A DNA stretch of 63,984 nt, counting the filler, from Phoronis australis (taxonomy: Eukaryota; Animalia; Phoronida): the NCBI GenBank assembly GCA_002633005.1. It is 7 parts of 7 records of this genome, joined end to end, with 100 filler letters (N's around TTAATTAATTAA, not from the genome) between each part and the next. Parts side by side here need not be neighbours in the genome. Positions count along the whole stretch, not along the records: positions 35,088 to 62,715 come from NMRA01000247.1; 6 more parts are not named here. The stretch is one strand, 5' to 3'. Positions 3,001 to 63,984 of this stretch are shown here, one piece after another (within the stretch, counting starts at the first letter, position 1; each line of letters starts with the position of its first letter). Made by a program: the position numbers and the translations under genes. A model generated the notes under the pieces. It searched no databases. It was not told the origin of the DNA and worked only from the letters and a program-made list of their open reading frames with translations.

Positions 3001-5969
3001 ACGGTTTAAAGTCAATTCTTTTTCTTTTTCTCTATTTATGGAGGGCCAGAGGACCTAGGAACGGAGGAGCATCGATTTTCAACGGTTAGTTTTCCGGAAA
3101 TAGACGTTACAACTGAGGAGGCGGATTCTCCGTAAAATTCTCGGTTTTTCGGGGTAAGGCAAAGTAGTGCGCGGTTTTGCGCCAATTGACGAAAAATCAA
3201 CCGTTGAAAGTCAATTCTTTTTGTTTTTCTCTACTGATGGAGGGCCAGAGGACCTAGGAACGGAGGAGCATCGATTTTCAACGGTTAGTTTTCCGGCAAT
3301 AGACGTTTCAACTGAGGAGGCGGATTCTCCGTGAAATTCTCGTTTTTTCGGGGTAGGGCAAAATCGTACGGGGCTTTGTGCCGATTGACGAAAACTTAAC
3401 CGTTGAAAGTCAATTTTTTTCCTTTTCTCTACTGAGGGAGGGCCAGAGAACTTAGGAACGGAGGGGCATCGATTTTCAACGGTTAGTTTTTCAGCAATAG
3501 ACGTTTGAACTGAGGGGGCGGAATCTCCGTAAAATTCTCGGTTTTTCGGGGAAGGGCAAAATAGTGCGCGGTTTTGCGCCAATTGACGAAAACTCAACCG
3601 TTGAAAGTCAATTCTTTTTCTTTTGCTCTACTGATAGAGGGCCAGAGGACCTAGGAACGGAGGAGCATCGATTTTCAACGGTTAGTTTTCCGGCAATAGA
3701 CGTTTCAACTGAGGAGACGGAATCTCCGTAAAATTCTCATTTTTTCGGGGTAGGGCAAGGTAGTGCGAGGCTTTGCGCCAATTGAAGAAAATTCAACCGT
3801 TGAAAGTCAATTCTTTTTCTTTTTCTCTACTGGTGGAGGTCCAGAGGACCTAGGAACGGAGGAGCATCGATTTTCAACGGTTAGTTTTCCGGCAATAGAC
3901 GTTTCCACTGAGGAGGCGGAATCTCCGTAAATTTCTCGGTATTTCGGGGTAGGGCAAAGTCGTGCTTGGCTTTGTGAAGATTGACGGAAACTTCACTATT
4001 AAAAGTCAGTTCTTTTTCTTTTCCTATACTGAGGGATGGCCATAGGACTTAGGAACGGAGGGGCATCGATTTTCAAAGGCTAGTTTTTCAGCAACAGACG
4101 TTTTAACTGAGGAGGCGAAATCTCCGTAAAATTCTCGTGTTTTCGGGGTAAGGCAAAGTAGTGCGCGGTTTTGCGCCAATTGACGAAAACTCAACCGTTG
4201 AAAGTCAATTCTTTTTGTTTTTCTCTACTGATGGAGGGCCAGAGGACCTACGAACGGAGGAGCATCGATTTTCAACGGTTAGTTTTCCGGCAATAGACGT
4301 TTCAACTGAGGAGGCGGATTCTCCGTAAAATTCTCGTTTTTTCGGGGTAGGGCAAAATCGTGCGGGGCTTTGTGCCGATTGACGAAAACCTAACCGTTGA
4401 AAGTCAATTCTTTTTCTTTTCCTCTATTGATGGAGGGCAAGAGTACCTAGGAACGGAGGGGCATCAATTTTCAACGTTAGTTTTGCGGCAATAGATGTTT
4501 GAATTGAGGAGGCGGAATCTCCGTAAAATTCTCGTTTTTTCGGGGTAGGGCAAGGTAGTGCGCGGGTTTGCGCCAATTGACGAAAACTCAACGGTTTAAG
4601 GTCAATTCTTTTTCTTTTTCTCTACTGATGGATGTCCAGAGGACTTAGGAACGGAGGAGTATCGATTTTCAACCGTTAATTTTCCGGCAATAGGCGTTTC
4701 AACTGAGGAGGCGGAATCTCCGTAAAATTCTCGGTTTTTCGGAGTAGGGCAAAGTCGTGCGGGGCTTTGTGCTGATTGACGATAACTTAACCGTTGAAAG
4801 TCAGTTTTTTTCTTTTCATCTACTGAGGGATGGCCATAGGACTTAGGAATGGAGGGACATCGATTTTCAAAGGTTAGTTTTTCAGCATCAGGCGTTTGAA
4901 CTGAGGAGGCGGAATCTCGCAAAATTCTCGGTTTTTCGAGGTANACTTAGGAACGGAGGGACATCGATTTTCAAAGGTTAGTTTTTCAGCAACAGACGTT
5001 TGAACTGAGGAGGCGGAATCTGGCAAAATTCTCGGTTTTTCGAGGTAGGGCAAAGTCGTGCGCGGTTTTGCGCCAATTGACGAAAACTCAACGGTTGAAA
5101 GTCATTTCTTTTTCTTTTCCTCTACTGGTGGAGGGCCAGAATACCTAGGAAAGGAGGATCATCTATTTTCAGCGGTTAGTTTTCCGGCAATAGACGTTTC
5201 AACTGAGGAAGCGGAATCTCCGTAAATTTCTCGGTTTTTCGGGGTAGGGCAAAATCGTGCGGGGCTTTGTGCCGATTGACGAAAACTTAACAGTTGAAAG
5301 TCAATTCTTTTTCCTTTTCTCTACTGATGTAGGGACAGAGCACCTAGGAACGGAGGGGCATCGATTTTCAGCGGTTAGTTTTCCAGCAATAGATGTTTGA
5401 ATTAAGGAGGCGGAATCTCCGTAAAATTCTCGGTTTTTCGGGGTAAGGCAAAGTAGTGCGCGGTTTTGCGCCAATTGACGAAAACTCAACCGTTGAAAGT
5501 CAATTCTTTTTGTTTTTCTCTACTTACGGAGGGCCAGAGGACCTAGGAACGGAGGAGCATCGATTTTCAACGGTTAGTTTTCCGGAAATAGACGTTTCAA
5601 CTGAGGAGGCGGATTCTCCGTAAAATTCTCGGTTTTTCGAAAGTCAATTCTTTTTGTTTTAACGGTTGAAACTCGATGCCCCTCCGTTTTTTCGGGGTAG
5701 GGCAAAGTCGTGCTGGGCTTTGTGCCGATTGACGAAAACTTAACTGTTGAAAGTCAATTCTTTTTCTTTTCCTCTACTGATGGAGGGCCAGAGTACCTAG
5801 GAACGGAGGAGCATCGATTTTCAACTTTAAGTTTTCCGGCAATAGACGTTTGAATTGAGGAGGCGGAATCTCCGTAAAATTCTCGGTTTTTCGGGGTAAG
5901 GGAAAGTAGTGCGCGGTTTTGCGCCAATTGACGAAAACTCAATCGTTGAAAGTCAATTCTTTTTGTTTT
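1..5969 (+). repeat. 199-bp satellite array, block A (largely alternating two monomer types)
   Basis: Monomer landmarks (GAAAGTCAATTC, CCTAGGAACGGAG, GAGGAGGCGGAATCTCCGTAAAA) recur every 199 bp; repeated 62-aa ORFs are spaced 398 bp apart. Confidence 0.98.
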
Positions 5970-36947: not shown

Positions 36948-39900
36948 TACATAGTCAACATCAAAAACTAAGAGTGCAAGGAGCTGAGTGTCAAGTCAGA
37001 CATATACCTGTATGTTCCAGCAGCACACGGGATTGGTTCAGTACTTCCTTCAGGACAATAGTGACCAATGGGACACCTGCCTCCTGTACCACTGCTATTA
37101 GTGGATGGCGTTGATTGGTCCACACCTGAAATAGGTTGGTAGGGATTACAGCACTTGGCATTTGGTTCAGATGTCCACACTCAACACAATAGAATTGTGA
37201 AAGTGCCAGAGTCAGAACAGATTTGTGAGTAATAGTCACTTACATGGGTGCGACATTTTGAGAACCAGTTTTCTCAACTGAATAACGGGCATCAGCTGGT
37301 CCAAGACCACTGTAAGTAAATACTGCTGATTTGTGTAAGATAAATGTGCATGTAAGAACGAGACAAAAGGAGTCCAGAAAGCTTGAAGACAAAGTTAGGT
37401 TACTGTATTTAGGTGTCTAAGTACCCGGCACAGGAAATAAGGAAGGTGTCTACCATTAATACGAAACTTATCAGGCGTTGACATTGATAAGTATCGCTGT
37501 CATCACTCAATTATAGCATTAAAGCCTAACTTCAACTGAGTTTTGTTAATTTAGATGTACTGGACTAACCAGATAGTCCCAGCAAAGCATTAGTGAAATA
37601 AGAAAACGCAGGTTTAATCACTCAAATGCAGACCTGTCAAATGATAGGAGAAGTCGCCTTTTTGTACCATATTGCGTCAACGCGACAACTCAGCACAAAC
37701 AACAAATAGCCGATAACAGTTGTATTGAATGGGTGTCTGAATAGTACACCATTGCGTGTAGGTGTTATTCACACCTGTTTGAATTAAAGGGTGATTCTTG
37801 CGATGACGTAGACAAAAGCAAGCCAGTAAATCTAACATTTCATTACATTTGCCAATTTATGGCCTTGGTGGACTCAGAGAGATGCTCTTAACATACTCCA
37901 GAAACCAAATTTACATGTGTTACTATTCAAGATAAGCTTTAAACTAGTACTACATTTTATGCATTCAATAGTTTAAAATTATTTATAATGGGTTTACACA
38001 ATATTCACTAGGTGGTGCTAATGAATAAAAATTGTTCTTTTTGACATCTGAATAGATTGAGACCATAAAGCAGTTCATGAGCATAGATATTTCTGTGAGA
38101 AGGTCCCCTCTTTCACTTGAAACACTTAGTGAACTTGGAGTTTGTCATTGCTGAACAATACTAACCTATAGTACAGTAGTATCCAGCTGAACAGTTTCCA
38201 CTGACGACTGCCAGACCAGGCACATGGCAGTATTTTCCTCCAGGGCATTGTGTGCATTCGGACACTGACCGGATGCCATATGTAGGGTTGTATGTTCCTG
38301 CTGGGCACATCTGAAGGTCATTCCCTGTGCTGGCTGGACAATAATAACCAGGCAAACATTGGTCAGCACGGTCGCGGTTGACACAGAAGTATCCCTCCGG
38401 ACATGGATCACAGACACTTGCACCAGTGTAGTTAGTGTAAGTGCCATTTGTACAGTACAGATGTTTAGTAGACCCGACTGGACAGTAAGATCCCTGTGGA
38501 CAAATGTCACCTGTGACTCCATCTGTTGGAGCTTTGTTCTTAGCACTGAGAGTACAGTAGTATCCAGCATCACAATCTCCACTGACACTGGATAGCCCAG
38601 CAAGTTTGCAATACTTTCCAGGATCACATGGCAAACAAGCGGTAATATTAGTCATACGTGTGTTGGGATTGTAAGATCCAGGACTGCAGGCAATGGGCTC
38701 ATAGCTCCCCTCAGGACAGTAATGGCCAACGGGACACTCGTCACCATATGCTTGGCCAACAGGATTGGCTTCTTCAGATCTGTTGCTGCAGTAGAAGCCC
38801 GCAAGGCAAGAACCATTGGTGGCCGTCAAACCAACCTCAGAACAATACTCACCAGGGGGACAAATGGTGCAGTCACCTTCAGCGGTGAGTTGTGGTGCAG
38901 CGCCATAGGTTCCCTTGGGACAGTTGGTAGGCCAAGAGCTCCCAGACTCACAGTACGTCCCCTGAGGGCATGGGCCTCCCTCGACTGACAAGGTTGGATT
39001 GGGTGCTGAAGCACCAAGGATACAATAGAAACCAGCAAAGCACTTGTTAGTGGGTTCAGTGATATTCTCAGCCTCACAGTAGTATCCTTCAAGGCAAGGT
39101 CGGCATTCGCTGCGATTCTCCAATCCAGTTGAGTTGCTGAATGTTCCGACAGGGCAGGGGTTTTCGCGTGCAGTCTTTGTGCCATTTGGACAATAGAATC
39201 CAGACGGACAGGTCTTTGGTATTACTACACCATGTGATGGCGCAGAAACACCACTCTGCTGTTCAGCAATAGCTTCATTTTGGTCACAGTACATACCACC
39301 AGGACACTGCAGGCATTCTCCCTGTTCCACAATTGGCTGATACGATCCTGACAGACACGGTGTTTGTTGGGGACTACCAATAGGACACGCATGGCCAGCA
39401 AGACACTGGTTACCAGGTGGCTGGGGAACTGTCATGTTCTCAGGACAGAACCATCCCTGGTCACAATAGTCGTTGGGAAGATCACGACCGTAGCCAGAAC
39501 AATACTTGCCAGCTGTGCAGAAGAGGCAATTTGTTTCATTGTGGCTGGCGAATCTGTTGTTGTAAGAACCTGGGTCACATGGTATGGGGTAGGAGCTTCC
39601 TGTTGGACAATAGTGGCCTTTTGGGCATATGTCGCCTGTGGTTTCATTNATACTTTCCAGGATCACATGGCACACAAGCGGTAATATTAGTCATACGTGT
39701 GTTGGGATTGTAAGATCCAGGACTGCAGGCAATGGGCTCATAGCTCCCCTCAGGACAGTAATGGCCAATGGGACACTCGTCACCATATGCTTGGCCAACA
39801 GGATTGGCTTCTTCAGATCTGTTGCTGCAGTAGAAGCCCGCAAGGCAAGAACCGTTGGTGGCCGTCAAACCAACCTCAGAACAGTACTCACCAGGGGGAC

Positions 39901-41799
39901 AAATGGTGCAGTCACCTTCAGCGGTGAGTTGTGGTGCAGCGCCATAGGTTCCCTTGGGACAGTTGGTAGGCCAAGAGCTCCCAGACTCACAGTACGTCCC
40001 CTGAGGGCATGGTCCTCCCTCAACTGACAAGGTTGGATTGGGTGCCGAAGCACCAAGGATACAATAGAAACCAGCAAAGCACTTGTTAGTGGGTTCAGTG
40101 ATATTTTCAGCCTCACAGTAGTATCCTTCAAGGCAAGGTCGGCATTCGCTGCGATTCTCCAATCCAGTTGAGTTGCTGAATGTTCCGACAGGGCAGGGGT
40201 TTTCGCGTCCAGTCTTTGTGCCATTTGGACAATAGAATCCAGACGGACAGGTCTTTGGTATTACTACACCATGCGATGGCGCAGAAACACCACTCTGCTG
40301 TTCAGCAATAGCTTCATTTTGGTCACAGTACATACCACCAGGACAATGCAGGCATTCTCCCTGTTCCACAATTGGCTGATACGATCCTGACGGACACGGT
40401 GTTTGTTGGGGACTACCAATAGGACACGCATGGCCAGCAAGACACTGGTTACCAGGTGGCTGAGGAACTGTCATGTTCTCAGGACAGAACCATCCCTGGT
40501 CACAATAGTCGTTGGGAAGGTCACGACCATAGCCAGAACAATACTTGCCAGCTGTGCAGAAGAGGCAATTTGTTTCATTGTGGCTGGCGAATCTGTTGTT
40601 GTAAGAACCTGGGTCACATGGTATGGGGTAGGAGCTTCCTGTTGGACAATAGTGGCCTTTTGGACATATGTCGCCTGTGGTTTCATTGACAGGATTTGGT
40701 AAGATTGTGCTGCCACTACAGTAATAGCCTGCCAGACAGTCTCCACTCACTGCTGCCAATTCATTGGACAGACAATACTTGCCGCTATCACATGGTATGG
40801 GTGCTGCCGCTCCAGGGGGGCAGTATGTTCCTGCTCGGCACATGCCACCAGTCATCTGCGATGGGCACGCGCATGTGCTTCCTGCGTCATTACCAAGAGT
40901 TGTTGGCTTGTTGGACTAAGCAGCAAGGGTGCAGTACCACCCAGGGGCACAGACCCCAGCAGGTTCAGACATTCTGTGGTGAGGGCAGTAGTAGCCAGGA
41001 AGGCACATTTGGCATGATGTGTCATTGGAGATTTCGGTCTCCTTGTTGAATGTACCATTGTTGCAGGGGAACTGGGTGGCAAACTCCATATTAACAGGGC
41101 AGTAGTGACCTGCAAAAAGAATCACAGTACACTGTAATATCAGTAATTGGTCAATACTGTGCCATTAAAAGAACATGTTAATCACACCGTTCTGTATTCC
41201 TGAAGTCTACTTCATTCTAGAGAGAAAAAAACACTTTCAAAATCTCAAACCCTTCGAATTTGGTCTCGACAATAAAAGAACAGAGCATGTCAAAATCTAT
41301 GGAAATATTACACCCTTGCTTAAACAACAGTGTCACAGCGCTTTGTGTATTCGAATCAAGTCTTGACTCATTTATCTAAATGTTGAATTATCAAGGGTCA
41401 TCAGTTATTGTCCAGCAGGTGGCTAGCCAATGCTGATGCTGTTAGTGTATATTTTTAAAAAAAGTGGTCCCAGTGTGAATCATATTGGGTTGACAACTAA
41501 GTAGACATAACAACCTATCTATGAGCATATGCCATAAAACTTTGACAAGTTTCATGCCTTCTTTTGGTACACAGAGGAAACAAAACACCAGTTAATGATC
41601 CTGCACCAATAAACAACTTTGACACTACAGAATCAAGAACAAACAACTACATGATTGGGCACTAAATACAACAATACATTTGAACATGAAATATACTGTG
41701 TGTTTCATGTTTAGATGATGTTTTGTGGTGCTCACTGATGATGATTTAAGATCAAAAGCAAATAAGATCGAATCTACCATACATACATATTGCTACGTC

Positions 41800-44230
41800 C
41801 AAATTACCAGAAAGACAACCTCAGGACTCTCCGAGAGGGAAGATGCAAGAAGAGTCCAACGACAGACCTCAAATGGCAACAACCGGACCAAATAGGACTA
41901 CGATTACGAACACCGATTTAGCATCAAGAACCTGTGTGTGTGGAAAGATTCTGAAGAATTTAAGAGGGTTGAAGATCCACCAAGGAAAGATGAAGTGCTT
42001 ACGTCAGGTCGCAAGGCAACGCTTGGGCGCCACGTCCAGCGAGACGGGGGAGGGATTGAGCCAGGTCTCAAACCACAGTGCAGAAGACCTCCCAGCTACG
42101 CATCAGATGGAAGCATTAGTAGTAGAAGCTGAAGTATTTCAGAATCCAGTTCCAGCCAGTTCAGCAGGTCCACCAGATACTGCAAAGAAGGATCGAATCA
42201 AGTGGCCATCAGCAGCTGATAAGAAGGCGTGGTCAGCCTTAGACGATGATCTGGATAGCATCTTACGTGTCACTCTTCGAGGTCCAGCAGAGACAAAGAT
42301 TGAGGCTATGACTAGGATTGTTTACCAAGTCAGTGTGGACCGCTTTGGAACAGTAGAGAAAAGAAAGGAAACATNGGTCTAGAGGCTGAAGATCTACCAG
42401 ACAAAGGTTTTGATCTGGGGACATAAAGAAGTCATAAGTGGATAGCACTGTGAAGAAAGCCCGATCGGGGTCAGCCCCTGCTCCAAGTAGAATTTCCTAC
42501 AAGGTCTATAAGATGTGTCCCAAGTTGAGAGAAAGGCTCTGGAAGCTGTTTAAGATCCTCTGGAGGAAGTGCGTAGTTCCAACCCAGTGGGGGCGAGCTG
42601 AAGGAGTTTATGTTCCGAAAGAAGAAGGCTCGAAGCAGATTAGCCAGTTTCGACCAATTTCACTGCTCAGCGTGGAAGGAAAGATCTACTTATAGCAATC
42701 TTATCCGGCAGAATGACAAACTTCATGATCAAGAACAAGTATATTGAAACATCTTCACAGAAAGGCGGGGTACCAGGCTTTTCTGGATGCCTGGAACATA
42801 ATTCTATCATAAGTGAACTCATACACCGAGCGAAGAAGGGCAAGAAGAATCTGTCTATGGTGTGGCTCGACATGGCAAATGCGTACGGTTCGGTACCACA
42901 TGTATTAGTTTATCGTGCCATGGACTTCTACCACATTCCTGAGAAAGTCAAGAATATAGTGAAGTCATACTATAGCTCCTGTGTGATGCGTTTCACAGTC
43001 GGCAACTTCACTACGAAGTGGCAACATCTTGAAAAAGGAATTATGACAGGCTGTACCATTTCAGTCATCCTGTTTATCATGGCAATGAATGTCCTGCTGA
43101 AGAGAGCCCAATCTGAGCGAAGAGGTCCCAAGCTAGATGAAGTCAGACAGCCATCATGTAGAGCTTTTGTTGACGACATTACAATTAAGACAGAGTCACC
43201 AGTGGGAGCCAGAACAATTCTCTGTTGCCTAGAAGAGCTCACTAAATGGGCCCGTATGTCATTCAAGGCAGAGAAGTCCAGATCACTAATTATCAACAGA
43301 GGCGTTTTGCTCAAGAGACAGACGTTTTCGATAGCAGGTTGCAGAATTCCAACAATAAGTGAACAACCAGTCAAGTGCCTTGGCAAGTACTATGATAGCA
43401 GCCTACGAGACACATCCCGTGTCAAGGATGTGAAAGCTCAGCTCAAGGTTGGGCTTGAGAAGATCGACAAAGACGGCAGACCCGGAAGATTCAAGCATTG
43501 GTGCTACCAGTTCATCTTGCTCCCGAAGCTTATGTGGCCACTGTTAATCTACAACGTCACGTCGTCTTCAGCTGAGGAAATGGAAAGAGCAGCGAGCCGG
43601 TTCATTCGAAGGTGGCTTGGTCTACCTGCATCATTCAGCAACGTCGGGCTGTACTGCAAGTCATCGAAACTCGTTCTTCCGGTCTCATCTGTGGTGGAGG
43701 AATATAAAGTTACCAAAGTGCGAGCCAGTATCACTCTGCGGAATACTTCTGACCAGGCTATCAGTGGTTGCATCAACCAGTCACGTACCGGCAGTAAGTG
43801 GTCCACCACGTCGGCAATCAGCGAAGCAGAAAGCCGGCTGAGGCACAAGCAACTAATAGGAAGTGCTTGCCAGGGTAGGCAAGGACTGGGCTACAAGACC
43901 GGGAATCCAGCAAGGAAGAGACTTAAAAACCCAGACAGAGAAGTTAGATTGTCAGAGAATGAAGGAAGGTATGCCCGAGCAGTTCAGATGGGTCAGCAGG
44001 GGGCGTGGACGAAGTGGGGCAAAGTCTTGCAAAGGGAAATAAAGTGGGTGGACTTGTGGAAGATGTCGCCTTTGAAAGCAAAGTTTCTCATCAGATCTCT
44101 TTATGATGTACTGCCTACTCCCAGCAACCTTGCTATTTGGGGTCTTACTGACAACCCGAGCTGTATTCAGTGTGGACGCAGATGTTCTTTAGAACACATT
44201 CTGTCATATTGCAGCGTGTCTTTGGCATCA
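41800..44230 (+). mobile_element. Hero-type (RLE/R2-group) non-LTR retrotransposon A, 3'-truncated and frameshifted; 5' boundary uncertain
   Basis: N-terminal zinc finger CVCGKILKNLRGLKIHQGKMKC; RT motifs FRPISLL, WLDMANAYGSV, KGIMTGCTIS, AFVDD; CCHC CIQCGRRCSLEHILSYC; frameshift near 42690; N at 42375; endonuclease missing. Confidence 0.9.
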
Positions 44231-52723: not shown

Positions 52724-54157
52724 CACGGGTGATAAACAACATGACCGCCGGTCCTCCAAATCGGACCGACTCACCCAAAACAGGACTGACGTACCCAAAA
52801 ACATGACTGCTCCACCACAAAATAGGACTGACGCACCTAAAAACATGACCGCCCCACCACAAAACAGGACTGCCGGGGACTGAGTAGTTAAGGCCTTTGT
52901 GTGATACTGCGGGCTATGACGTAACCGGTCATATAGCTGTGTAAAGACTATCGCCAAAATAAAGCTTGACAGCTTTGCGTTATTGAGCTCCATTACATCC
53001 CCGAAATTTCCCACAGCCCAGGTAGTTCTGCTCGTCACCTCGTCGTGAAACTTACATCAACATGTAGTAGAGCGCGCGACTGACGCAAGCGCATGCAAAA
53101 TCTAGGCGTCAATCAACACTCACCTTACAGTTTGCAACTGCTTGAGTGAAAAACAATCTAATGAACTGTTGTAACAATAAGTCTGTCGCCCTTGTGACAT
53201 GTGCACGCGCCATTTCCTCAGAAAAATTTTGCGACATCTTTCGAAAGATGATGACAACTTGGCAGCAACAAGATTTGTTATGAAATTCGGTTTGCTGGTA
53301 TCAAAATACTAAAAACTTATAAGGAAATGAAACCAGTTTCGATAATTCTTTGTGCCAGATACGCAACCTTGTAGAAGAACAGTTGACTGAACAATCAGGG
53401 GAAAAGGAACCGGCCAATGTAAGCCAACTTAAGAGAACGCAGAATAACGACAGAACAACAATTTTTCTCAAGCGCCGATGAAATAATTTAATTTACTCAA
53501 GGAAGAGTGTCGTTAATAACACAAATTCGCCGGGTGAAGATTTTACATGTTCAGTTTTTTTACCCACATCGGCGCAAAGCTGTATATTTAGTATAAAGCT
53601 TTGCCACACAAAGGCAGCTAGTATGATGATGCTTCACCCGACAACGCCCGTTTTTTTACTTGACTAACTTTAAACGTCAAATTAGAGAAAATGATTTTCA
53701 TTTTGTTCTAAAACTTACACATTGGATAAAATCATAATCATTTAGCTCAAAAGCGTACAACGAGGTTGTTTTGTGTTAGATTTATTAAATGTTGACCTTT
53801 CAACTGTTTATAAGTTACATACCGCAGCTGGTAACCTGGTGATGAGTAAAACTCAAAAGCGCCGCGTATTACAAAGCAAAGTGTCCTCTGTTGCTCACAA
53901 AAGATTTCGGTGGATTAATCGGCACAAGACCTGCATATGCATACGTATATAGCACCATTGTATGATCTGTGTAGGCCTAACGGTAATAAATCTTAGCCTG
54001 TTTGTCATTGCAGTTTTAGTCCCTGGCGGTCCTGTTTTGTGGTGGGGCGGTCATGTTTTTAGGTGCGTCAGTCCCATAAAGTTCTGGTGCGGCAGTCCCA
54101 TTTGATCCCCGGAGGTCCTGTTTAGAGGATGGGTGGTCATATTGTTTCTCACCCGTG
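52724..54157. mobile_element. Non-autonomous DNA transposon, CAC...GTG termini and 5-bp TSD (Transib-like)
   Basis: TIR CACGGGTGA(T/G)AAACAA(C/T)ATGACC; AACAT at 52719-52723 and 54158-54162; 42-bp subterminal repeats mirrored at both ends. Confidence 0.85.
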
Positions 54158-57100
54158 AACATGTCGTCTAAAATATTTCATGACGTTTTGAGTAGCAATT
54201 TTACAAATTTGCTTGTTAGTGAACACTTCAGTCTACAAATACGATAATTGAAAAAATGAAAAGGCTGCAAATTAATGAATGTACACAACAGAGTTGTGAT
54301 CAGCCTTAATGGACATTTTCAACAATGAAATGTTGACATATTAGCTTTTCTTAAATCGCAATACTTCTGGACCAAATAAACAAGTTGCTTGAGACAACAT
54401 CAATTGATTTCAATTACGTGGCAAATTTGTATCTGGATATTAAAAGCTTTAAAACAATGATTTCTCTTCAGCCCTGAATGAACTCAAATTAAATTTTCCA
54501 TGCTAAATTCATAGTCTATGGCCTAGGAAAGAGTATTTCAAGATTTTTTAATTTTCCTTCAAACAAAGAAAACATGAAGACTTGGGATGTTTTTAAAGAG
54601 GCGCTTCGATGGCTGATATGTGTTATATGAGGGTAAAGCAATCATCTGAGACACTAATCTGCATGTAAAGTCCCTAGAATAATTAAACATGAAGTCTACT
54701 TTCCATTTTTCACAAAAAATGGCCACCACGTCATGTTGTAAGACACGAGTTCAGATTTTTTTCAGGCATTGAGAATTCATAAACTATATAACTTGATGAG
54801 TCCAAAGATAATGGTTAATTTAATAAGTTCTTTGATGAAAAGGAAGACGACTTCACAAAAGATGACAAATCAAAAAGATATCACTGCTAAGATATTAAAC
54901 CCAAATATCACTGTTTTATTACCTGTAGTACAGGGTACAGGCTCATTGGATCCTTCTGGGCAGTATTGTCCGGGCTGACACTGCCCCCCAGTGGCATTCA
55001 CTGAACAGTAGCAGTTATTTGTGACCGATGCATTAGAATATGTGATGTTGCCAATATCAGTGGGTTGTGCAGCCCAGGCACCACGCACACAGTACCAGCC
55101 TTCAGCACACGGGCCAGTAGGATTGGTGAGGCCAGGCGTGGCGCAGTAATAGCCAGGTGGACAGAGCATGCAGTCAGAGCTACTCTATTTTCCTGCAAGT
55201 GCAAGTTCAAAAGCATTCTCACAAATGCCGCAGAGCTCTCTTAAGATAAAGATAATTATGCAGTCAGTCAACATACCTCACCTGAGGCAACAAATTGCAG
55301 TGTTCAATTATGAGATTATCACGAGCATGCACACTGGAACCAAAAGAAGGTTGATACACTTTGAAGCTTTTTTCCCAGGAAAAGTCAAAATGTGCTAGCA
55401 CTTTCAATGTTTCTCCACTGACAAGTAAAACATCTATTAATGTAACAACTACTGCATAATATAAGCACGCATCACAGCAAGTGTTAACATACTTACAAAT
55501 TCTTTAACAATTAATACCATGTTGGACAAAATGTTAAAATTACATTTTACAAACGAAATGACAATCCTTCAAGGCATTTAGGAGATATTGAGGTGAAAGC
55601 TGAATGTCTGCCCAGACTGAGATCATAGCAATACGCACCATAGAGCTTAGAAAGCACACCATACTAACCTGTCACATTGTTGAAGTAACCTTTATCACAA
55701 AGGACCTCGTTTCCTTACTTAGTCCCCAGAGGGCAGTAGTGTCCAGTGAAACACGAGGTGCCTGAAAAATCAGTGGCAGGAGTTCTCCAGGCAGTAGTAT
55801 CCAGTGGGACAGGTGATGCACTCGGCAAGACCTGTTGATGGGTTGTAGGTACCTGCTGGACATCCCAAGGGATACGATGTTCCATTTGGACAGTAGTGAC
55901 CAATTGGACAGGGTCCTCTCGTAGAGTCCAGTGTGGGATTATTGGGTGCACCAGGACCCTCAAGACAGTAGAAGTCGCCCCAGCATGGACCTGCAATAGT
56001 AGAAAAGGAAGTATTCAACTGTGAGAAATAGTTGGATCAAGCCTTATTTGTATAACACTGAAAGGACAATCAATTGTACAATCATAGTGGGCAAAACTGT
56101 AATAAAAAGTACGGAAAAAAGTTTCTAAAATTGATGCAAAAACAGGTAAGCAACAAAACAAAATCAGCATTATTTTTGAGATTGATTTGTGTCCAAAGAA
56201 GAACAGCACACTGTGGAGACATCAGGGAAATGACGAAAAGTATAAATGGTGCAGACTTGGCACATGCTTAACTTCTAGTTTATTAAACAAAATAGTTGTT
56301 CACTCTTGTCAAGGAGATTTTTCATAAATAAAGAAAAAAATGGGTTATGCAACAGGCACGCTGATATCTTAAAGGAACACTAATAATTCGTTTTAGGGCC
56401 GTAGTATTTGTGTGTTTTTATTACAAATCACCAGTTCTTGTCAGACATTTGCTATAACTAAGGTGGATGTCTTAACAATTTGCACACACTTAACATTCTC
56501 TGCTATTCATCAGTTGGACTTGGCTCAGCAACACAGCATTTAGCTCATTGCAGAACTAGTAGATTTGATTCTGCAGTACAGCTAATTTCTGGAAAAAACA
56601 AAACTAAAAGCAATGAGTCTACATGTCCTCACAGCTCCCCTTGTTTAGGTCATAGGTCACTAAATGCTGATTGGCTGATCCCACTTACCAGTCGGCTCAG
56701 TGAGTCCCCCTGTACCGCAATACATTCCTAAGCTGCAATTGGTGCTTTGTGTTGTCACTAAATGTCCCGACTGGACAAGGCAGTGGGGTCGTCGTCCTCT
56801 TTGGACAGTAATGACCAGCTGGGCATGGTCCAGAAGTCCCTTTGCTGTTGACGTCCGGCATAGCTGTGTCTGAGCCGAGTGTGCAGTAGTAGCCACGGCT
56901 GCATTCACCAGACACAATTGTAGAGTTGATCTGGTCGCAGTAATAACCACCATTTCATTGGATAACTTCTGCTGAGCACTATAGGTGCCCGTAGGACATG
57001 GCTGCCAGACAACACCTATAAAAGAAATGATTCGCTGATACCAGGTGGAATACATCACTCATGACGAATTTATTCCTGCTGAAAATTCAAGCCAAAACCC

Positions 57101-57613
57101 AATTAAATTTGTTAACTGAAGCGCAAATTTCAATTACCCCATTCCCTGCCAACAGAGCCAGCTGGCTGGCCTGCCTCAGTTAAGATGGCATCATAAAATT
57201 CTCCAACTGAATAGGACTACTTGTGACCTTCTTTTTGACCGGGATTTTCATGTGGAGGAACCAGAAACCTCTTAAACGGTAGTTACATTGGCTGAGAACG
57301 AATTTTGTAGAAACGATACATCCCAATAGGTTGGTTGCACTTACATTGCAATTATTTTACATAAATGAAGTAATATGAAAGATAAGCAATATATCTAATC
57401 ACACAAGTTTTTATTTTTAAAACATGCATACAAATAGATATAATAGGAAAAAGGAAACAACTTTACCCAGAAAATAAACATGACTGTACAATACTCTAGT
57501 TTATAAAAAATAATATTGAGAACCTAGGGACAAAGTGAGATCTGTTAAAAAATACACATCTGTAAATGCTGCGCATCAGAATATATAAATACCTCAACTT
57601 ACATAATATACAC

Positions 57614-60490
57614 ATGTTTAGGTTGGTTTACTCCATTTGCAAAGAGAGATTTGGGGAAGAGGAGAGGAGAAAACCCAGAGAACCAGCAGGCCCAAGTAGA
57701 AGACAGATAGAGATTTCTCAAATCAGGCAGGAATTGCGACATATGAAGAAGTTGTGGAAGAAGGCTGTTCAGCAGGAGAAAGAAGGTTTGGCACAGCTTC
57801 GGTTCGAGTTAAGGTCTAGGCTTTTGAGATTAAGCAAAGCTGAACGTCTGAGGAAGAAGAGAGCCGAGCGTACACGCACAAGAGAGAGGTTTATGGCTAA
57901 CCCTTTCAAGTTTGTAAAGGGCATTCTGGGGAAGGAGGCCTGTGGGCGTCTGAAGTGTACACAGGAGGAGCTGGAAAACCATCTGAAGGACGTGCACAGT
58001 GACGGGGCCAGGAATGCACAGTTGGCGGACTTCGATTGGCTGGATGTTGAGGATGCACCAAGTGTAGCCTTGGAAATGGGGGACATCAAGTTCTCAGAGG
58101 TGAAGAATGTCATAGAAAAGTCAAGATCAGGGTCAGCCCCAGGGCCGTCGGGTCTGCCTTATAAAGTGTATAAGAAGTGTCCAAGGCTGTTGAGGCGTCT
58201 GTGGAAGCTTCTGAGAGTTATATGGAAACAGAAGATTCTGCCTGACACTTGGGGTAAAGCAGAAGGGGTGTATATCCCGAAGGTGAAGGGAGCCATCAGG
58301 ATCGGTGATTTTCGTCCCATCTCGCTTCTAGATGTGGAAGGGAAGATCTTCTTTGCAGTCATTTCAGCCAGGATGACGAGTTATCTCCTGAGCAACAAGT
58401 TTGTGGATCCAACAGTACAGAAGGGTGGAATTCCTGGATATGCAGGGTGTCTGGAGCATAATAGCGCCATAACAGAGCTCATTAAAGATGCTAAGCGAAA
58501 CAAGGCTGATTTAGCAGTGGTATGGTTGGACATGGCAAATGCCTATGGATCGATGCCCCATGCACTAATTGAATTGGCAATGGAGACCTACCATATCCCT
58601 AGAGAACTTCGAGATCTCATTACAAGTTACTTCCGTGGGACTTATATGAGGTTCACAGTCAACGACTTCACTACAGGTTGGCAGCCGCTCGAGAAGGGGA
58701 TAATGACAGGGTGCACCATATCGATCATCCTTTTCATCATGGCTATGAATGTCATCATCAAGCGGGCTAGTAAAGAGTGCAGAGGACCTTTGTTGCAAGG
58801 TAAAAGGATGCCACCTTGCAGAGCATTTGTGGACGATTTGACGATTACGACAGGGTTTGCGGTAGGTGCCGCTTGGGTGGTCAAGACACTGGGCGAGCTG
58901 GCTAATTGGGCACGCATGAGTTTCAAGGTGGAGAAGTCCCGTAGCCTTGTCATTGTTAAGGGAAAAATCAACCAACATCATACGTTCAAGATAGGTTCAG
59001 AGGCCATTCCATCTGTGAGCAGAAAACCAGTTAAGTACTTAGGGAAGTTCTACAGCGGGTCTTTGAAAGATGTGGAGCATGTAAAGGCAGCCATCAAAGA
59101 GCTGAGTGACAATTTGATCAAGATTGAGAAGAGCGGTCTCCCGGGCAGATTCAAAATCTGGTGCTACCAGTTTGGACTTTTCCCTAAAGTTATGTGGCCA
59201 CTGACAACGTACGATTTCTCAATTTCAACTGCAGAGAAAATGGAAAGGATGGTGAGCAGATGGTTAAGAAAGTGGTTGGGTGTCCCACCAAGTTTTGCAA
59301 GACTCGGCTTATACATCAAAGGAGGCGCAGTTTTTCTGCCTGTGACATCGATTGTGGAGGAGTTCACGGTGATAAAGTACAAAACATTATTGACTCTGCG
59401 GAACTCGAGAGATGAGATGATCAGAGAGAGTGAATTATCGGTAGATTCTGGAAGAAAGTGGAAGGCTGCTGTAGCACTGGAGGAGGCAGAGAGCAGGTTA
59501 CGGCATACAGATATCGTGGGAACCGTCTGCCATGGAAGACAGGGATTGGGAATGGTTCCGGGGAAGAGGTGTAAGTTGTCAACAGGCAAAGAGAGGCGCA
59601 AAATGGTTTTGGATGAAGTTAGATCCCAGGAGAACGAGAGAAGGTATGCTGAAGCGGTCGGACTGAGGAGACAGGGTGCATGGATATCATGGGAAGGAGT
59701 GAACAGCAGAAGGATAACTGGTAAAGACCTTCTGTCTTCAGACCAATTCAGATTGGGCTTTTTACCTGGTTCCATATATGACACTCTCCCAACACCTGTA
59801 AATCTTCGAATGTGGGGCAAAACTGAGGATGACAGCTGCAGGGGCTGTGGCAAGCGGTGTACCTTAGAACACGTTCTATCCAGCTGTAGAGAAGCTCTCA
59901 CTTCAGGGAAGTACACTTGGCGCCATGATAAGATTCTCAAGTGTATTGCACATGTTTTAGATCTGGAGAGAAGGAAGGCGACTAACTCTGGCAAAGCACT
60001 CATTCGATTCAACAAAGGCAGGGTATCCACTAAGAGGCGTGATTCAGGTATTCTAGGTATGGCTGTCGACTGGAAGATGGAGACGGATGTGGTAACTAGG
60101 GGTTCATTCCCAAGCCATATTGCAGTAACCCAGTTACAACCAGACATAGTGTTGTGGGCAGACAGCAAGAAGATAGTGACTTTGATCGAGTTAACGGTGC
60201 CGTGGGAGACTAGGATGCAAGAGGCTCACGAGAGGAAACTACTCAAGTACGCAGAGCTATCGCAGGAATGTGCAGCGAATGGCTGGAAATGCTTCCGTCT
60301 CCCCATAGAAGTTGGATGTCGGGGGTTTATTGCTGGAAGCATGTGGCGGATGACGAAGCTACTGGGCATTTCATCAAAAGGGCGAGCTGATATGTTTAAG
60401 TCTACTGTAAGAGCAGCAGAGGAAGCAACCGTGTGGCTGTGGTTACAGCGTGAGAACAAATGGCAACCCCAGCGTTGGCTGGAGGTCTGA
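57614..60490 (+). CDS. Hero retrotransposon RT-CCHC-RLE polyprotein lacking the N-terminal zinc finger
   Basis: Uninterrupted ORF: FRPISLL, WLDMANAYGS, AFVDD, CRGCGKRCTLEHVLSSC, YTWRHD, QPDIVLW...IELTVPWE...ERKLLKY. Confidence 0.93.
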   Translation: MFRLVYSICKERFGEEERRKPREPAGPSRRQIEISQIRQELRHMKKLWKKAVQQEKEGLAQLRFELRSRLLRLSKAERLRKKRAERTRTRERFMANPFKFVKGILGKEACGRLKCTQEELENHLKDVHSDGARNAQLADFDWLDVEDAPSVALEMGDIKFSEVKNVIEKSRSGSAPGPSGLPYKVYKKCPRLLRRLWKLLRVIWKQKILPDTWGKAEGVYIPKVKGAIRIGDFRPISLLDVEGKIFFAVISARMTSYLLSNKFVDPTVQKGGIPGYAGCLEHNSAITELIKDAKRNKADLAVVWLDMANAYGSMPHALIELAMETYHIPRELRDLITSYFRGTYMRFTVNDFTTGWQPLEKGIMTGCTISIILFIMAMNVIIKRASKECRGPLLQGKRMPPCRAFVDDLTITTGFAVGAAWVVKTLGELANWARMSFKVEKSRSLVIVKGKINQHHTFKIGSEAIPSVSRKPVKYLGKFYSGSLKDVEHVKAAIKELSDNLIKIEKSGLPGRFKIWCYQFGLFPKVMWPLTTYDFSISTAEKMERMVSRWLRKWLGVPPSFARLGLYIKGGAVFLPVTSIVEEFTVIKYKTLLTLRNSRDEMIRESELSVDSGRKWKAAVALEEAESRLRHTDIVGTVCHGRQGLGMVPGKRCKLSTGKERRKMVLDEVRSQENERRYAEAVGLRRQGAWISWEGVNSRRITGKDLLSSDQFRLGFLPGSIYDTLPTPVNLRMWGKTEDDSCRGCGKRCTLEHVLSSCREALTSGKYTWRHDKILKCIAHVLDLERRKATNSGKALIRFNKGRVSTKRRDSGILGMAVDWKMETDVVTRGSFPSHIAVTQLQPDIVLWADSKKIVTLIELTVPWETRMQEAHERKLLKYAELSQECAANGWKCFRLPIEVGCRGFIAGSMWRMTKLLGISSKGRADMFKSTVRAAEEATVWLWLQRENKWQPQRWLEV

Positions 60491-60594
60491 TCAGCCTTCA
60501 GAGACCTACCATCGGAGAGGGTTCTAGGTCAAGGTCGAAACCCACGATGAAGATCGACTCCTAGCTGACGACGACGCTGGGTAGCAGATACTAC
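57621..60594 (+). mobile_element. Hero-type non-LTR retrotransposon B, 5'-truncated with intact 3' end
   Basis: ORF above; CATGTTTA direct repeat at 57613-57620 and 60595-60602; ~100-nt 3' UTR with no poly(A). Confidence 0.92.
60510..60578 (+). ncRNA. Putative non-circularly permuted hammerhead ribozyme in the Hero 3' UTR
   Basis: Core motifs GUU (60521-23), GAAA (60537-40) and CUGACGA (60565-71); stem I CUAGG/CCUAG, stem III GGGU/ACCC plus CAUCG/CGAUG, stem II GUC/GAC; folded by hand. Confidence 0.7.
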
Positions 60595-61607
60595 CATGTT
60601 TACAAGTAAGTGAGCTTCCAAGTTAACAAAATATGATCAACAAAATACTTATTGTTGAAGGTAAAAACATACCAGAACCATTGTGATGATAGAAAAAATT
60701 ATGCATACCTTTAATCGCATTTGTTTGGGACAAAATATGAGTACGAACTTTAAAATCAGCGCATATGTGAACAACAGCAACAACACCAACAACAAAATAC
60801 TTGTAATTGGAGGTAAAAACAGACCAATACAATTCTGATAATAGAAGAAACCGATGCATATCTTTAATCACACTAGTTTTTAGCCAAAATATGCTTTTAA
60901 GGGGCCTTCAACAACAGGATGCAATACAGTACAATATAATACATAAAACAATAATTAGATACAGGTAACAAAGCAGTAATTAAAAACAGGTTATGGGTGA
61001 AATTTTGACCAGGAGAGATTAAATAAAGAGACAGAAAAACCACAATTACCCAGCATCACACTGGCCTGATGGTGCTGTCAATGCTGTTCCATTGCAGTAG
61101 TATCCTGGAGAGCACGCCTGACAATTGGCAGCCTCCTCCAGCCCTGTACTGTCTGACCACGAGCCCAGAGGACACTCCACAGGTGACGTGGTGCCATATG
61201 GGCAGTGATGACCCTTTGGACAGCCTGAACCTGTCATGCCATCTGTTGGTATGGGAATGCTTGATCCACTGATGCATAAGTAGCCAGCATCACAACTTCC
61301 TGTAGGAAATTAAGAGAAAAACATGAAATAGAAATATGATCTTCAGAAACATTATAAATTATGGACAAACTGCAGCACAAAATTTGCATAACTTACATTG
61401 TGTATTTAGGTACATCAGCCAATATATTTAATAACCTAAATGTTGAATCATATACATGCACTTATAAGTGAAAGACTATTAGACAAAAGTCAAGTAAAAC
61501 AAAGGAGAATTTTTAAAAAATATAATGAGAGTGAAATTTGACTTATTCATTATAGAATGGTAGAAGTTAACATGCGTTCAATGTCTAACAGTAACTACAA
61601 AATGAAG

Positions 61608-61675
61608 AGTATTAAGTGGTAAGAGCACAAGACTAGCAATCTATAGACCTGTGGTTTGATTCCCAGTTGGGGTTC
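61608..61675 (+). mobile_element. tRNA-derived SINE-like relic
   Basis: AAGTGGTAAGAGC and GGTTTGATTCCC at tRNA-like spacing. Confidence 0.35.
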
Positions 61676-62069
61676 ATGATGTTTCTGTGTATATTTTGTA
61701 TAAAAGTATTAATAATGGACAAAAAGGCAACAATAACACCCAGTTTCAGACATTGTCATATAGAAGAAATAGCTGGCTATGTCTATAAGAGAAGTTTAGA
61801 AGCATCTGCGAAACATCTGAGCAAAAACGGCATTTTGAAAAACACATGCATACATGGCAATGAGAAGCCCTTTCCAGGAAAAAGCATGTCAAAACCTTTT
61901 ATTCCCTGCAAGAATATATTACTTGAATGATTATTTACGAATCATTCAATAACCACATTGTAAGAGGTACAAGTTAGAAAATGTGAAATTATAAAGAAAT
62001 GGATCCGACCTTCAATGAAATCACAAAAACATCTCATAAATGAATTCCTTTTATTGGTAATACAACTTA

Positions 62070-62715
62070 CCGTAATCGTTCCGGTTAACGCCCATGCTCA
62101 GTTTACCACCTATCCCCCACTTTAAGTGGATTTTCGATTTAACCGCCCACTGCTCAGTTAAGCGCCGCCCTGCGATTTTTTAAGATTTCCAGTTAAGCGT
62201 CCACCTCTCAGTTAAGCGCCCATCCCCGACTTTTAAAGAATGAAGATTTAGCGCCTAGTGCTAAGGAAACGCGCGATTCCCGGACTTTTAGAAAAAGATC
62301 GATGATCACAATGAGTGCAACGACGCGGGGACTCCGAGACAGTGATTTAGCAATCTGAATTACAAAACAGGTAACGAGTTATTGTGTTGGGTCATGAACT
62401 CACTTCAAAATATAATACTTGAACCTTTTTGTCACTTTATTTTCTTCCCTTGTTTGCAAAGTTTAAGAACGCTGGCGGCGTCAAAAGCTCCGCTTTCAGC
62501 AACTTTGCCGCGCTGAGTGTCCGTCTGCAGTGCACTAGATAAAACATATATTCGAAAAAATCAGGCCAGAGAAATGTGACAATGGTTTTGCCAACCCTCC
62601 AAATTCTATTAAGGTGGGAAGCTCTCGTATTTTGAACAAATCTCACAACTCACGGAAAGATGTCAAATTCTCAATATTTTGATGAATATAACTGCCGGGT
62701 TATAGAGGATGTGGG
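62070..62715. mobile_element. Left end of a Tc2/pogo-like element, cut by the contig end
   Basis: TA|CCGTAATC terminus and repeated CAGTTAAGCGCC subterminal motifs. Confidence 0.6.
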
Positions 62716-62989
62716 NNNNNNNNNNNNNNNNNNNNNNNNNNNNNNNNNNNNNNNNNNNNTTAATTAATTAANNNNNNNNNNNNNNNNNNNNNNNNNNNNN
62801 NNNNNNNNNNNNNNNTTTAGGTTATAGGGCACATTTGGCAAAAACCTCAAGTAGTCAGTAAAACCATGGACAGACTGGGTTTGTTCAAGTTTCGGTCATT
62901 CAAGACAAATAGAAAACTTATGAAAAGGTAAAGAAGAAGGATAAAAGGGTCAAGCAGGAGTGACGTACTTGTAAGTAGAAGTGACCTAC

Positions 62990-63134
62990 TTGTAAGCCAA
63001 GTAAAGCGACCAACAACAGATGGCGCAGTAGATGCTGTCTCTCACATGTGACTCGTGCCGCTTGTCTGGCTCAGCCAAGTTGCATGGAAACAGGCCTGTT
63101 GTGGGACTTTGAAAACGCAGGATCTGTCGACATA
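62990..63134 (-). CDS. PHKB: Phosphorylase b kinase beta subunit, second coding exon
   Basis: (V)CRQILRFQSPTTGLFP...HVRDSIYCAICCWSLYLAY matches the PHKB QSPTTGLFP...DSLYCA...W...AY region; AG/GT flanks. Confidence 0.9.
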
Positions 63135-63469
63135 CTGCAAAACATAGTGCAATATTTGGTAAGTGTGTTTACTAAAGTGCTCAACAAATCATGTAAATGA
63201 ACACTACATAGTTATGTAATATTACCGAGGTTAAGCGTGAATGGACACTACATATGTAATATTGCTGAGGTTCAGCAATGTCAACCATAATAGCTTGGAT
63301 TAAGTCTTGAGTTTGCAAAAATACGAATTCTCTATCTACAAATAGATCATACTCACTTATCCTGAAAGATAACATTAAAAACTGAAATTAACAGCCTAAG
63401 TAAGTTTATGAACCCACACAGATAGACTATATCTCCAAAAACCCACATCACATGTTTTTCACACAATAC

Positions 63470-63635
63470 CTATTCTGTAATACTCATCAAGCCTCTTGAC
63501 AGCTGACGTGTAGTCGAACTCTCCCGGGGCGTAATCTTCCGAATCGCCTGCGCTAGACGACTGTCGACGAGTTCTTCTCCAGCCCATACGGGTATCATAG
63601 CGAACAGGCTTTGCTAGCTCAGCTGCAGTCTCCAT
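63470..63635 (-). CDS. PHKB: Phosphorylase b kinase beta subunit, first coding exon
   Basis: METAAELAK...AVKRLDEYYRI with a phase-1 donor joining the next exon; resembles PHKB KLDHYYRIV. Confidence 0.85.
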
Positions 63636-63984
63636 ATTGAAATTCACAGCTTACACTAAGTTGAAAACCTTCTCCACATGGTCGACAGTCTAGAAAAAGG
63701 AGATGAAACTTTTCAAAAGCAATAAAGCTCACTGGCTCATACAGTTACAGACACGCATAATGAACAGCAATTTTCAGTAATGAGTCTGAATTAACAAGAA
63801 GCTCGAAATTTGCTAAGTAGCAGCCCTCCACCTGTTGGTGTATTTACGTACTATCAGACAGTCACGTGGGGCTATTACTACATGCATGATCTCACACACT
63901 GTACAGTCCTTGGTTAAATATGAGTGTTTATTTACTATCACATCAATGTTATCAGTCAACATGGAATTTTAAGTGCGTGAACAC

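Follow-up and report, generated by a model that had tools for sequence, protein, structure and literature searches.

Six permutations of the hammerhead ribozyme were defined by Eckert, Friedrich, Weinberg and Weinberg in 2023, with block C assumed to be uninterruptible (PMC10085705). In the accessible parts of that report, cleavage by type SGC (HRIMA-1, SGC variant) is validated, with rates of 0.007-0.19 per minute; a short link connects stems I and II, a helix 'I' joins the far sides of both stems, and most rows of its alignment have one extra U between A9 and G10.1. The rows carry metagenome or metatranscriptome accessions and no retrotransposon host is named for them there, whereas the motif described here resides in a retrotransposon. 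According to the accessible text of two other reports, an extra base between 9 and 10.1 is tolerated in a viroid hammerhead (PMC3705267) and in Penelope hammerheads (PMC4209133).

The hammerheads of Penelope-like elements and non-LTR retrozymes, as far as the accessible sources describe them (PMC4209133, PMC11167929, bioRxiv 10.64898/2026.07.22.740005), are of type I, often minimal and dimeric, and belong to GIY-YIG elements. The present motif has in common with them the retrotransposon setting, the head-to-tail copies, an extra base at 9/10.1, a presumed internal start of reverse transcription and a template proposed to be circular, but it is split and pseudoknotted, belongs to an RLE-type LINE and is located about 85 nt inside the 3′ end. 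The HDV-like ribozymes that occur in R2 and in other non-LTR elements, in the accessible parts of the reports (PMC7650587, PMC13580325), represent another class, are found at the 5′ end and release the element from a co-transcript; the likeness lies in a self-cleaving RNA within an R2-group element, although in the element studied here the cleavage is predicted and the hammerhead core is located in the 3′ UTR. The element itself resembles the Hero clade (PMC4640811, PMC3636483), whose members, in the accessible descriptions, likewise have a single ORF with a reverse transcriptase (RT), a zinc knuckle and a restriction-like endonuclease, and are dispersed and found in fish and marine invertebrates. 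In the open-access literature no ribozyme or conserved 3′ fold was found described for Hero elements, and neither a hammerhead split at A9/G10.1 nor a tested precedent for such a break with an inserted two-helix domain was found; subscription papers, Repbase reports, preprint supplements and the Eckert supplement, which was mostly term-searched, could contain either.

Results

Host element and insertion site

The window, by which we mean the whole stretch of DNA analysed, is 63,984 nt long and comes from the Phoronis australis assembly GCA_002633005.1, with positions 35,088-62,715 taken from NMRA01000247.1. A Hero-like RLE retrotransposon carries the RNA motif in its 3′ UTR, as an earlier note on this DNA had claimed; the motif begins within the final codons of the ORF, with the TGA stop codon at 60488-90 placed inside the loop of hairpin H (Table 1). 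The Hero label is taken from the domain order and the host range, and not from a tree with named Hero references. The open frame spans 57566-60490, its initial 60 nt being host flank by the empty-site comparison. It has a Pfam RVT_1 match (1e-17) and matches the L1 and R2 RT structures, and the endonuclease is recognized by the motif PDIV...ELTVPWE alone, with no Pfam family returned for that region. At least 370 relatives of the ORF are listed, with fish, amphioxus and bivalve proteins among them. The single ORF, with the RT followed by a zinc knuckle and a PD-(D/E)xK endonuclease, places the element in the R2 group (RLE) as defined in the accessible part of PMC3636483.

The element spans approximately 57625-60610 and ends at about 60609-60611, that is, at +86 to +88 if nucleotides are counted downstream of the predicted cut after 60523, as is done throughout; the end 71 nt past the cut that had been proposed earlier is thus superseded. 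Reads from the empty site fuse the 5′ flank (to about 57624) straight to 60611 in three RNA runs (24, 13 and 9 reads), as does one DNA contig, and the match to a contig of another copy extends through 60611. Reverse transcription presumably starts near this end. No clear target duplication is seen at the 57624/60611 junctions in the empty-site comparison. The sequence CATGTTTA was considered as a target duplication and ruled out, since the relative L061 has the same tail letters and 60611 is where the empty site joins. The insertion is missing from the reads of other samples with the same species label; it is polymorphic and probably recent.

A second Hero-like copy at 41750-44230 (+), with 52% protein identity to the first, is frameshifted, ends after the zinc knuckle and has no endonuclease, 3′ UTR or motif. 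Both copies lie antisense inside a large cysteine-rich host gene, the exons of which, with CPxGxYC-type repeats and a weak Ephrin_rec_like match, occupy approximately 38161-63000 (-), where 38161-40915 is a near-duplicated exon block. Positions 1-21745 of the window hold a 199-bp satellite array with inverted blocks.

Table 1 Coordinates of the retrotransposon ORF and of the parts of the RNA motif in the window.
Feature	Position	Strand	Remarks
Hero-like RLE non-LTR retrotransposon ORF, 5′-truncated, single	57625..60490	+	RT, CCHC zinc knuckle, PD-(D/E)xK-type endonuclease region
P0, 5′ strand	60468..60477	+	closing helix of the whole domain, partner strand 60572-81; overlap with the final ORF codons
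Hairpin H	60479..60501	+	6/6 pairs covary; loop hexamer UGAUCA 60488-93, self-complementary
Stem II, 5′ strand (G10.1 = 60503)	60503..60507	+	91% paired, 45/62 complete; not part of the covariance model
P4, 5′ strand (60509-13), and GA (60515-16) of the k-turn-like loop	60509..60516	+	93% paired
Block S	60517..60528	+	stem III 5′ strand, U16.1 60522, U17 60523, stem I 5′ strand 60524-28
Predicted cut	after 60523	+	core descriptor
Block G	60532..60545	+	stem II 3′ strand AGGUC, G12-A13-A14-A15.1 60537-40, stem III 3′ strand
k-turn-like loop (3-nt bulge, GA) and P4 3′ strand (60552-56)	60546..60556	+	
Block C, truncated	60560..60571	+	stem I 3′ strand, C3-U4-G5-A6-C7-G8-A9
P0, 3′ strand, immediately 3′ of A9	60572..60581	+	covariation, pair probabilities
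Tail: weak hairpin 60580-95, element 3′ end near 60609-60611	60580..60610	+	empty-site reads, contig piece ending at 60611

A hammerhead core in the order S-G-C

The three core strands that the earlier note had pointed out are present in the sequence as GGGU-U^CUAGG (60519-28), GGUC-GAAA-CCC (60533-43) and CCUAG-CUGACGA-C-GAC (60560-75). A descriptor search of the 64 kb for all six permutations on both strands gave a single match, which has the order S-G-C and places the cut after 60523. When 60 order-2 Markov copies of the window were searched likewise, the loose setting yielded 0.033 matches per window in any order and none with SGC (0/60), and strict stems yielded no match of any order. Rfam returned no ribozyme match in 54000-63984 and two chance snoRNA matches alone, and the minimum-energy fold of 60460-60610 tells little, with a z-score of -1.27.

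The family bears out the proposed stem I (60524-28/60560-64) as well as the core of stem III, the two being paired in 94% and 97% of cells, respectively, in 62 rows. The non-circular order of the strands, with its double pseudoknot, also stands, and rearranged hammerheads have indeed been reported recently as type SGC (PMC10085705); the plain SGC fold does not, since the strand with G10.1 is found upstream of the cleavage strand. Instead of a GUC/GAC stem II after a bulged C, the family pairs AGGUC at 60532-36 with the upstream GACCU at 60503-07. The C-GAC at 60572-75, immediately after A9, belongs to the 10-bp P0 helix with 60468-77, with pair probabilities at these bases in the window copy of 0.79 to 0.99 compared with 0.00 for the pairs claimed earlier. 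The extension of stem III by CAUCG/CGAUG has likewise been given up in favour of a separate helix P4 (60509-13/60552-56) past a GA/NNN-GA internal loop. A kink-turn consists of a C helix, a 3-nt bulge and tandem G-A/A-G pairs; a sequence pattern of this kind is present between P4 and stem III in 42/62 rows and absent from 20/62.

Other copies in the host carry T>C at 60476, which turns a U-G pair of P0 into C-G, and G at 60555 in place of the mismatched C of the window copy, which completes P4, while about half of them have A at 60514. They back the family fold because the changes at 60476 and 60555 suit P0 and P4, whereas 60514 G>A breaks the claimed extension. A further change, 60592 T>C, weakens the tail hairpin 60580-95, and the window copy has an A60518 x A60544 mismatch in stem III. 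When folded with nested pairs only, the window copy gives probabilities of 0.02 for stem II and 0.04 for stem I; low values are expected for pseudoknots, but they lend the two stems no support.

Conservation and covariation in the family

The last 450 residues of the ORF were aligned with 22 homologues, and 80 of 225 confirmed loci, chosen by protein only, were taken as the family set; all of their DNA comes from short-read metagenome contigs, and the loci are labelled L001 and so on. A locus counted as evaluable if it extends to the C-terminus and is followed there by at least 110 nt; among the 70 such loci, the motif is present in 66, with the core descriptor matching 56 and the covariance model 60. 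The other four are L026, which ends at the cut, L032, which is wrapped round the contig ends, and L058 and L065, both of them without the motif. All 67 covariance-model matches are on the sense strand. The motif-bearing relatives have 29-50% protein identity to the window ORF, and in a protein tree of 74 rows, made by a quick method, the motif is found on all main branches. A protein-based scan of viral contigs found no relative of the ORF, and one of prokaryote genomes found four loci, apparently stray eukaryotic pieces, none of which has the motif. Twelve core-pattern matches in viral contigs were dismissed as chance, as none has a stem I longer than 2 bp or a model score above 13 bits.

The covariance model contains the nested helices P0, H, P4 and III only, therefore stems I and II represent independent tests; the model was built from 24 of the 67 rows, which match it by construction. 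Five rows were dropped (three 5′-cut duplicates, one 3′-cut, one core-deleted), leaving 62 to be counted. Stem I, anchored on H17 and C3, is paired in 94% of cells and complete in 53/62 rows, compared with 50% in row shuffles. The upstream stem II, formed with the five bases before G12, reaches 91% (45/62 complete; row shuffles 61%), with GC, CG, AU and UA types at three positions and a near-constant G10.1-C11.1. Among the helices fitted in the model, 9/9 pairs of P0 covary with 95% paired, and 4/5 pairs of P4 with 93%. Over all 31 pairs, the nested part of which is fitted, 95% of cells are paired, compared with 30-42% in slid controls, and both sides change in 28 pairs. The 38 non-redundant rows provide the same picture for the stems. 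Conservation and covariation among relatives, on which the earlier note had let its proposal depend beforehand, are present for the core and for stems I and III. As far as sequences can tell, the RNA motif is real, family-wide and strongly covarying, with five to six covarying helices.

Within the core, U4, G5 and A6 are found in 62/62 rows, G8, A9, A13, A14, A15.1 and U16.1 in 61/62, C3 in 59, G12 in 57, G10.1 in 56 and C11.1 in 53, and N7 is free. Position 17 is U in 26, A in 19, C in 15 and G in two of the 62 rows; both G rows are misaligned and actually read C. The core is complete in the window copy and perfect in 49/62 rows as aligned, or in 51 after correction of two misaligned rows.

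An ordinary type SGC hammerhead, with GUC/GAC as stem II after a bulged C, seems very improbable. Three GUC/GAC pairs are possible in the window copy, and the register is paired slightly above shuffles, both in the family rows (59% versus 48%) and in a structure-blind MAFFT alignment of 40 rows (54% versus 43%). Nevertheless, it is complete in 12/60 rows and in 5/36 non-redundant rows, the upstream stem II reaches 81-87% in the same MAFFT alignment, and the bases concerned are taken by P0, at -17.4 kcal/mol versus -0.5 kcal/mol for the GUC/GAC stem II.

Comparison with known hammerheads

As expected for a hammerhead, stems I, II (with G10.1-C11.1) and III flank the core and show many compensatory types, but A9 is not joined to G10.1 directly or over one or two bases, as the G10.1 strand is placed upstream. 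With type SGC the motif shares the S-G-C order, the full core, two pseudoknots and a link of 3-7 nt between stems I and II; P4, which bridges the far sides of both stems, corresponds to the 'I' helix in place and spacing, with the geometry judged by eye. Type SGC has an intact block C, in which CUGANGA is followed by a single bulged U and the stem II strand, whereas here (12/60 rows complete for such a strand compared with 45/62 for the upstream one) the chain is open at this point, G10.1 comes from upstream, and P0 and H are inserted. The ends that are free in type SGC, the 5′ end of stem III and the 3′ end of the 'I' helix, are joined by the k-turn-like loop. Read circularly, the order of blocks is that of the SGC/CSG/GCS class, opened where SGC carries its bulged U. 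The alignments therefore point to a core that is opened between A9 and G10.1, with two extra helices, P0 and H, filling the gap. The S-G-C order alone has already been published (PMC10085705), and what appears to be new is a hammerhead opened at A9/G10.1 and its genetic setting.

Indications for and against cleavage

The motif probably self-cleaves, a prediction based on the invariance of the core, the avoidance of G at position 17 and the match of P4 and of the short link between stems I and II to those of the validated SGC ribozymes. The free N7, the retained G5, G8 and G12 and the U, A or C at position 17 are together the signature of hammerhead chemistry. In three RNA runs with the same species label there is no pile of read ends at the cut site and no indel at 60523, and reads cross the site; 18-19% of each run was read, with 254, 257 and 150 reads placed and a depth below 20. 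The reads derive from other copies, since the sampled animals carry the empty site. In the accessible part of PMC11167929, an active Penelope hammerhead is likewise reported with no pile of RNA ends. A search of sequencing runs listed no RNA run with the stretch, and near-identical copies among the metagenome loci have no scars at the cut.

Copy ends and tandem arrangements

In four families, near-identical dispersed copies cease to be alike at +82 to +103, with one copy at +63-67 and one pair at +121 as exceptions; in other families they do so at +121 to +342. The tails of 19/56 copies contain, at +71 to +95, a short hairpin whose terminal (A/C)UGUAU is about 10 nt away from the 3′ end; it is a candidate priming signal. 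Among the 56 copies with enough flank, ten have the conserved 5′ UTR head motif directly behind the tail, and several contigs repeat at 3.6-3.8 kb. The head (L003:2293, L004:118, L020:721, L038:593 and others) contains a conserved small hairpin with GUGAC and further short hairpins that are repeated; it may be an internal promoter or a protein-binding site. In L038 and L020, both full-length, the copy begins with the head motif and not at the cut.

In L053 another unit follows a 5′-truncated one, and the differences between the two are near-neutral (5 synonymous to 9 non-synonymous). The differences also look neutral in L037 (8:13), and in L007 (6:4) they lean to lineage mixing. L006 joins two lineages with 69% identity (10-1081 versus 3740-4811) tail to head with no spacer, with 136 synonymous to 33 non-synonymous differences; template jumping, self-targeting or an assembly mosaic are candidate explanations, and short-read assembly can produce mosaics that look like tandem joins. 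Anecdotally, the L001 contig starts at +2 and the L026 contig ends at exactly 0. The latter may be a k-mer effect, the last difference being located 95 nt before the L026 end. The full-length copy L066 has about 30 nt repeated at both ends (64-94 and 3918-3948), for which run-on past one unit and a long target duplication are both candidates.

Discussion

We agree with the earlier note that the intact integrated motif is a puzzle. In the reading that we favour, with a probability of roughly 0.4, tandem transcripts are cut in a controlled manner to unit length, their ends are held by helices or ligated, and priming occurs internally near +85. The hammerhead opened at A9/G10.1 would self-cleave after U60523 under control, and head-to-tail transcripts cut at two successive ribozymes would yield a unit-length RNA, the ends of which would remain base-paired through stems I, II, III, P4 and P0. 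Because its ends stay paired, such a unit would in effect be a circle, ligated or not. Reverse transcription would prime about 85 nt downstream of the cut, copying across the junction would restore an intact ribozyme in the DNA, and copying beyond one round would produce tandems. Priming at +85 together with copying of the junction would thus resolve the puzzle. The support from sequence consists of the core, the covarying helices, the S-G-C order with the upstream stem II, the copy ends near +85 and the seamless tail-to-head joins. A precedent, in the accessible parts of the reports, is Penelope, with a hammerhead, tandem copies and internal initiation (PMC4209133, PMC11167929), although cleavage is described there as dispensable for insertion of a Penelope element in vitro (PMC11167929), which counts against this reading. 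That Hero LINEs retrotranspose via a ribozyme-made RNA circle, with the ends held or religated and the RT priming inside and rolling, is possible but somewhat doubtful. Partial tests of the circle gave a mixed outcome: the two-lineage join in L006 counts against it, as one circular template cannot make such a join, and so do the start of L038 and L020 at the head, the absence of an RNA-end pile and the unscarred cut.

The main rival is a linear, protein-gated off-switch, which we consider rather unlikely. Here an active ribozyme would act as a switch on linear head-to-tail RNA, the uncut RNA protected by protein would be the template, and cutting would remove the 85-nt priming tail and so limit or time retrotransposition, with tandems arising from template jumping or from insertion at the element's own ends. 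Such a switch agrees with the full-length copies that begin at the head, the heterologous tandem of L006 and the cut site that is unscarred in all integrated copies, and the accessible part of PMC11167929 describes a Penelope ribozyme that is protein-gated, with uncut RNA as the main substrate in vitro. That a selfish element should retain a site for its own destruction over 29-50% protein identity is hard to explain, however, and the seamless tail-to-head joins in 10/56 copies and the L053 array fit a continuous template.

The fold may have a role apart from catalysis, since non-LTR proteins bind their RNA in the 3′ UTR region where it is located. It could be a scaffold for RT binding like the R2 3′ UTR pseudoknot, with a hammerhead-like core that is inactive because A9 and G10.1 are disconnected. 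With its position, the absence of RNA ends at the site would agree, as would the A in place of G12 in 5/62 rows, three of which are near-identical copies of one family; yet that family also includes a copy with G, L080, and a position 17 that is free among U, A and C but avoids G, next to a free N7 and conserved G5, G8 and G12, corresponds to hammerhead chemistry and not to a generic scaffold, which makes this explanation improbable. Even less is to be expected of an activity confined to RNA dimers, in which the H loops would pair two RNAs, stem II or I would be intermolecular, and cutting would take place in tandem or paired transcripts only. The loop switches between UGAUCA (29/62 rows) and UGGCCA (7/62), both self-complementary, so that 36/62 rows could pair in this way, the self-duplex of the loop is worth -10.2 kcal/mol, and Penelope and satellite hammerheads act as dimers according to the accessible text of PMC4209133. 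On the other hand, 26/62 rows have neither hexamer, UGA is the stop codon in many copies and alone conserves half of the hexamer, and the length of stems I-III suffices for a monomer.

A natural and widespread hammerhead opened at A9/G10.1 would break the rule of the uninterruptible block C and provide a new site for inserting RNA domains into the ribozyme. The range of non-circularly permuted hammerheads would extend beyond viroid-like metatranscriptome RNAs to animal genomes, and the R2-group LINEs, which are now under development for gene insertion, would include one with a hammerhead inside its 3′ end. The definition of Hero RNA ends and the formation of tandems become testable with a 125-nt transcript. 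If the circle reading is true, an R2-group LINE would replicate like a viroid or a retrozyme, and the split core would represent a fourth wiring of the hammerhead fold.
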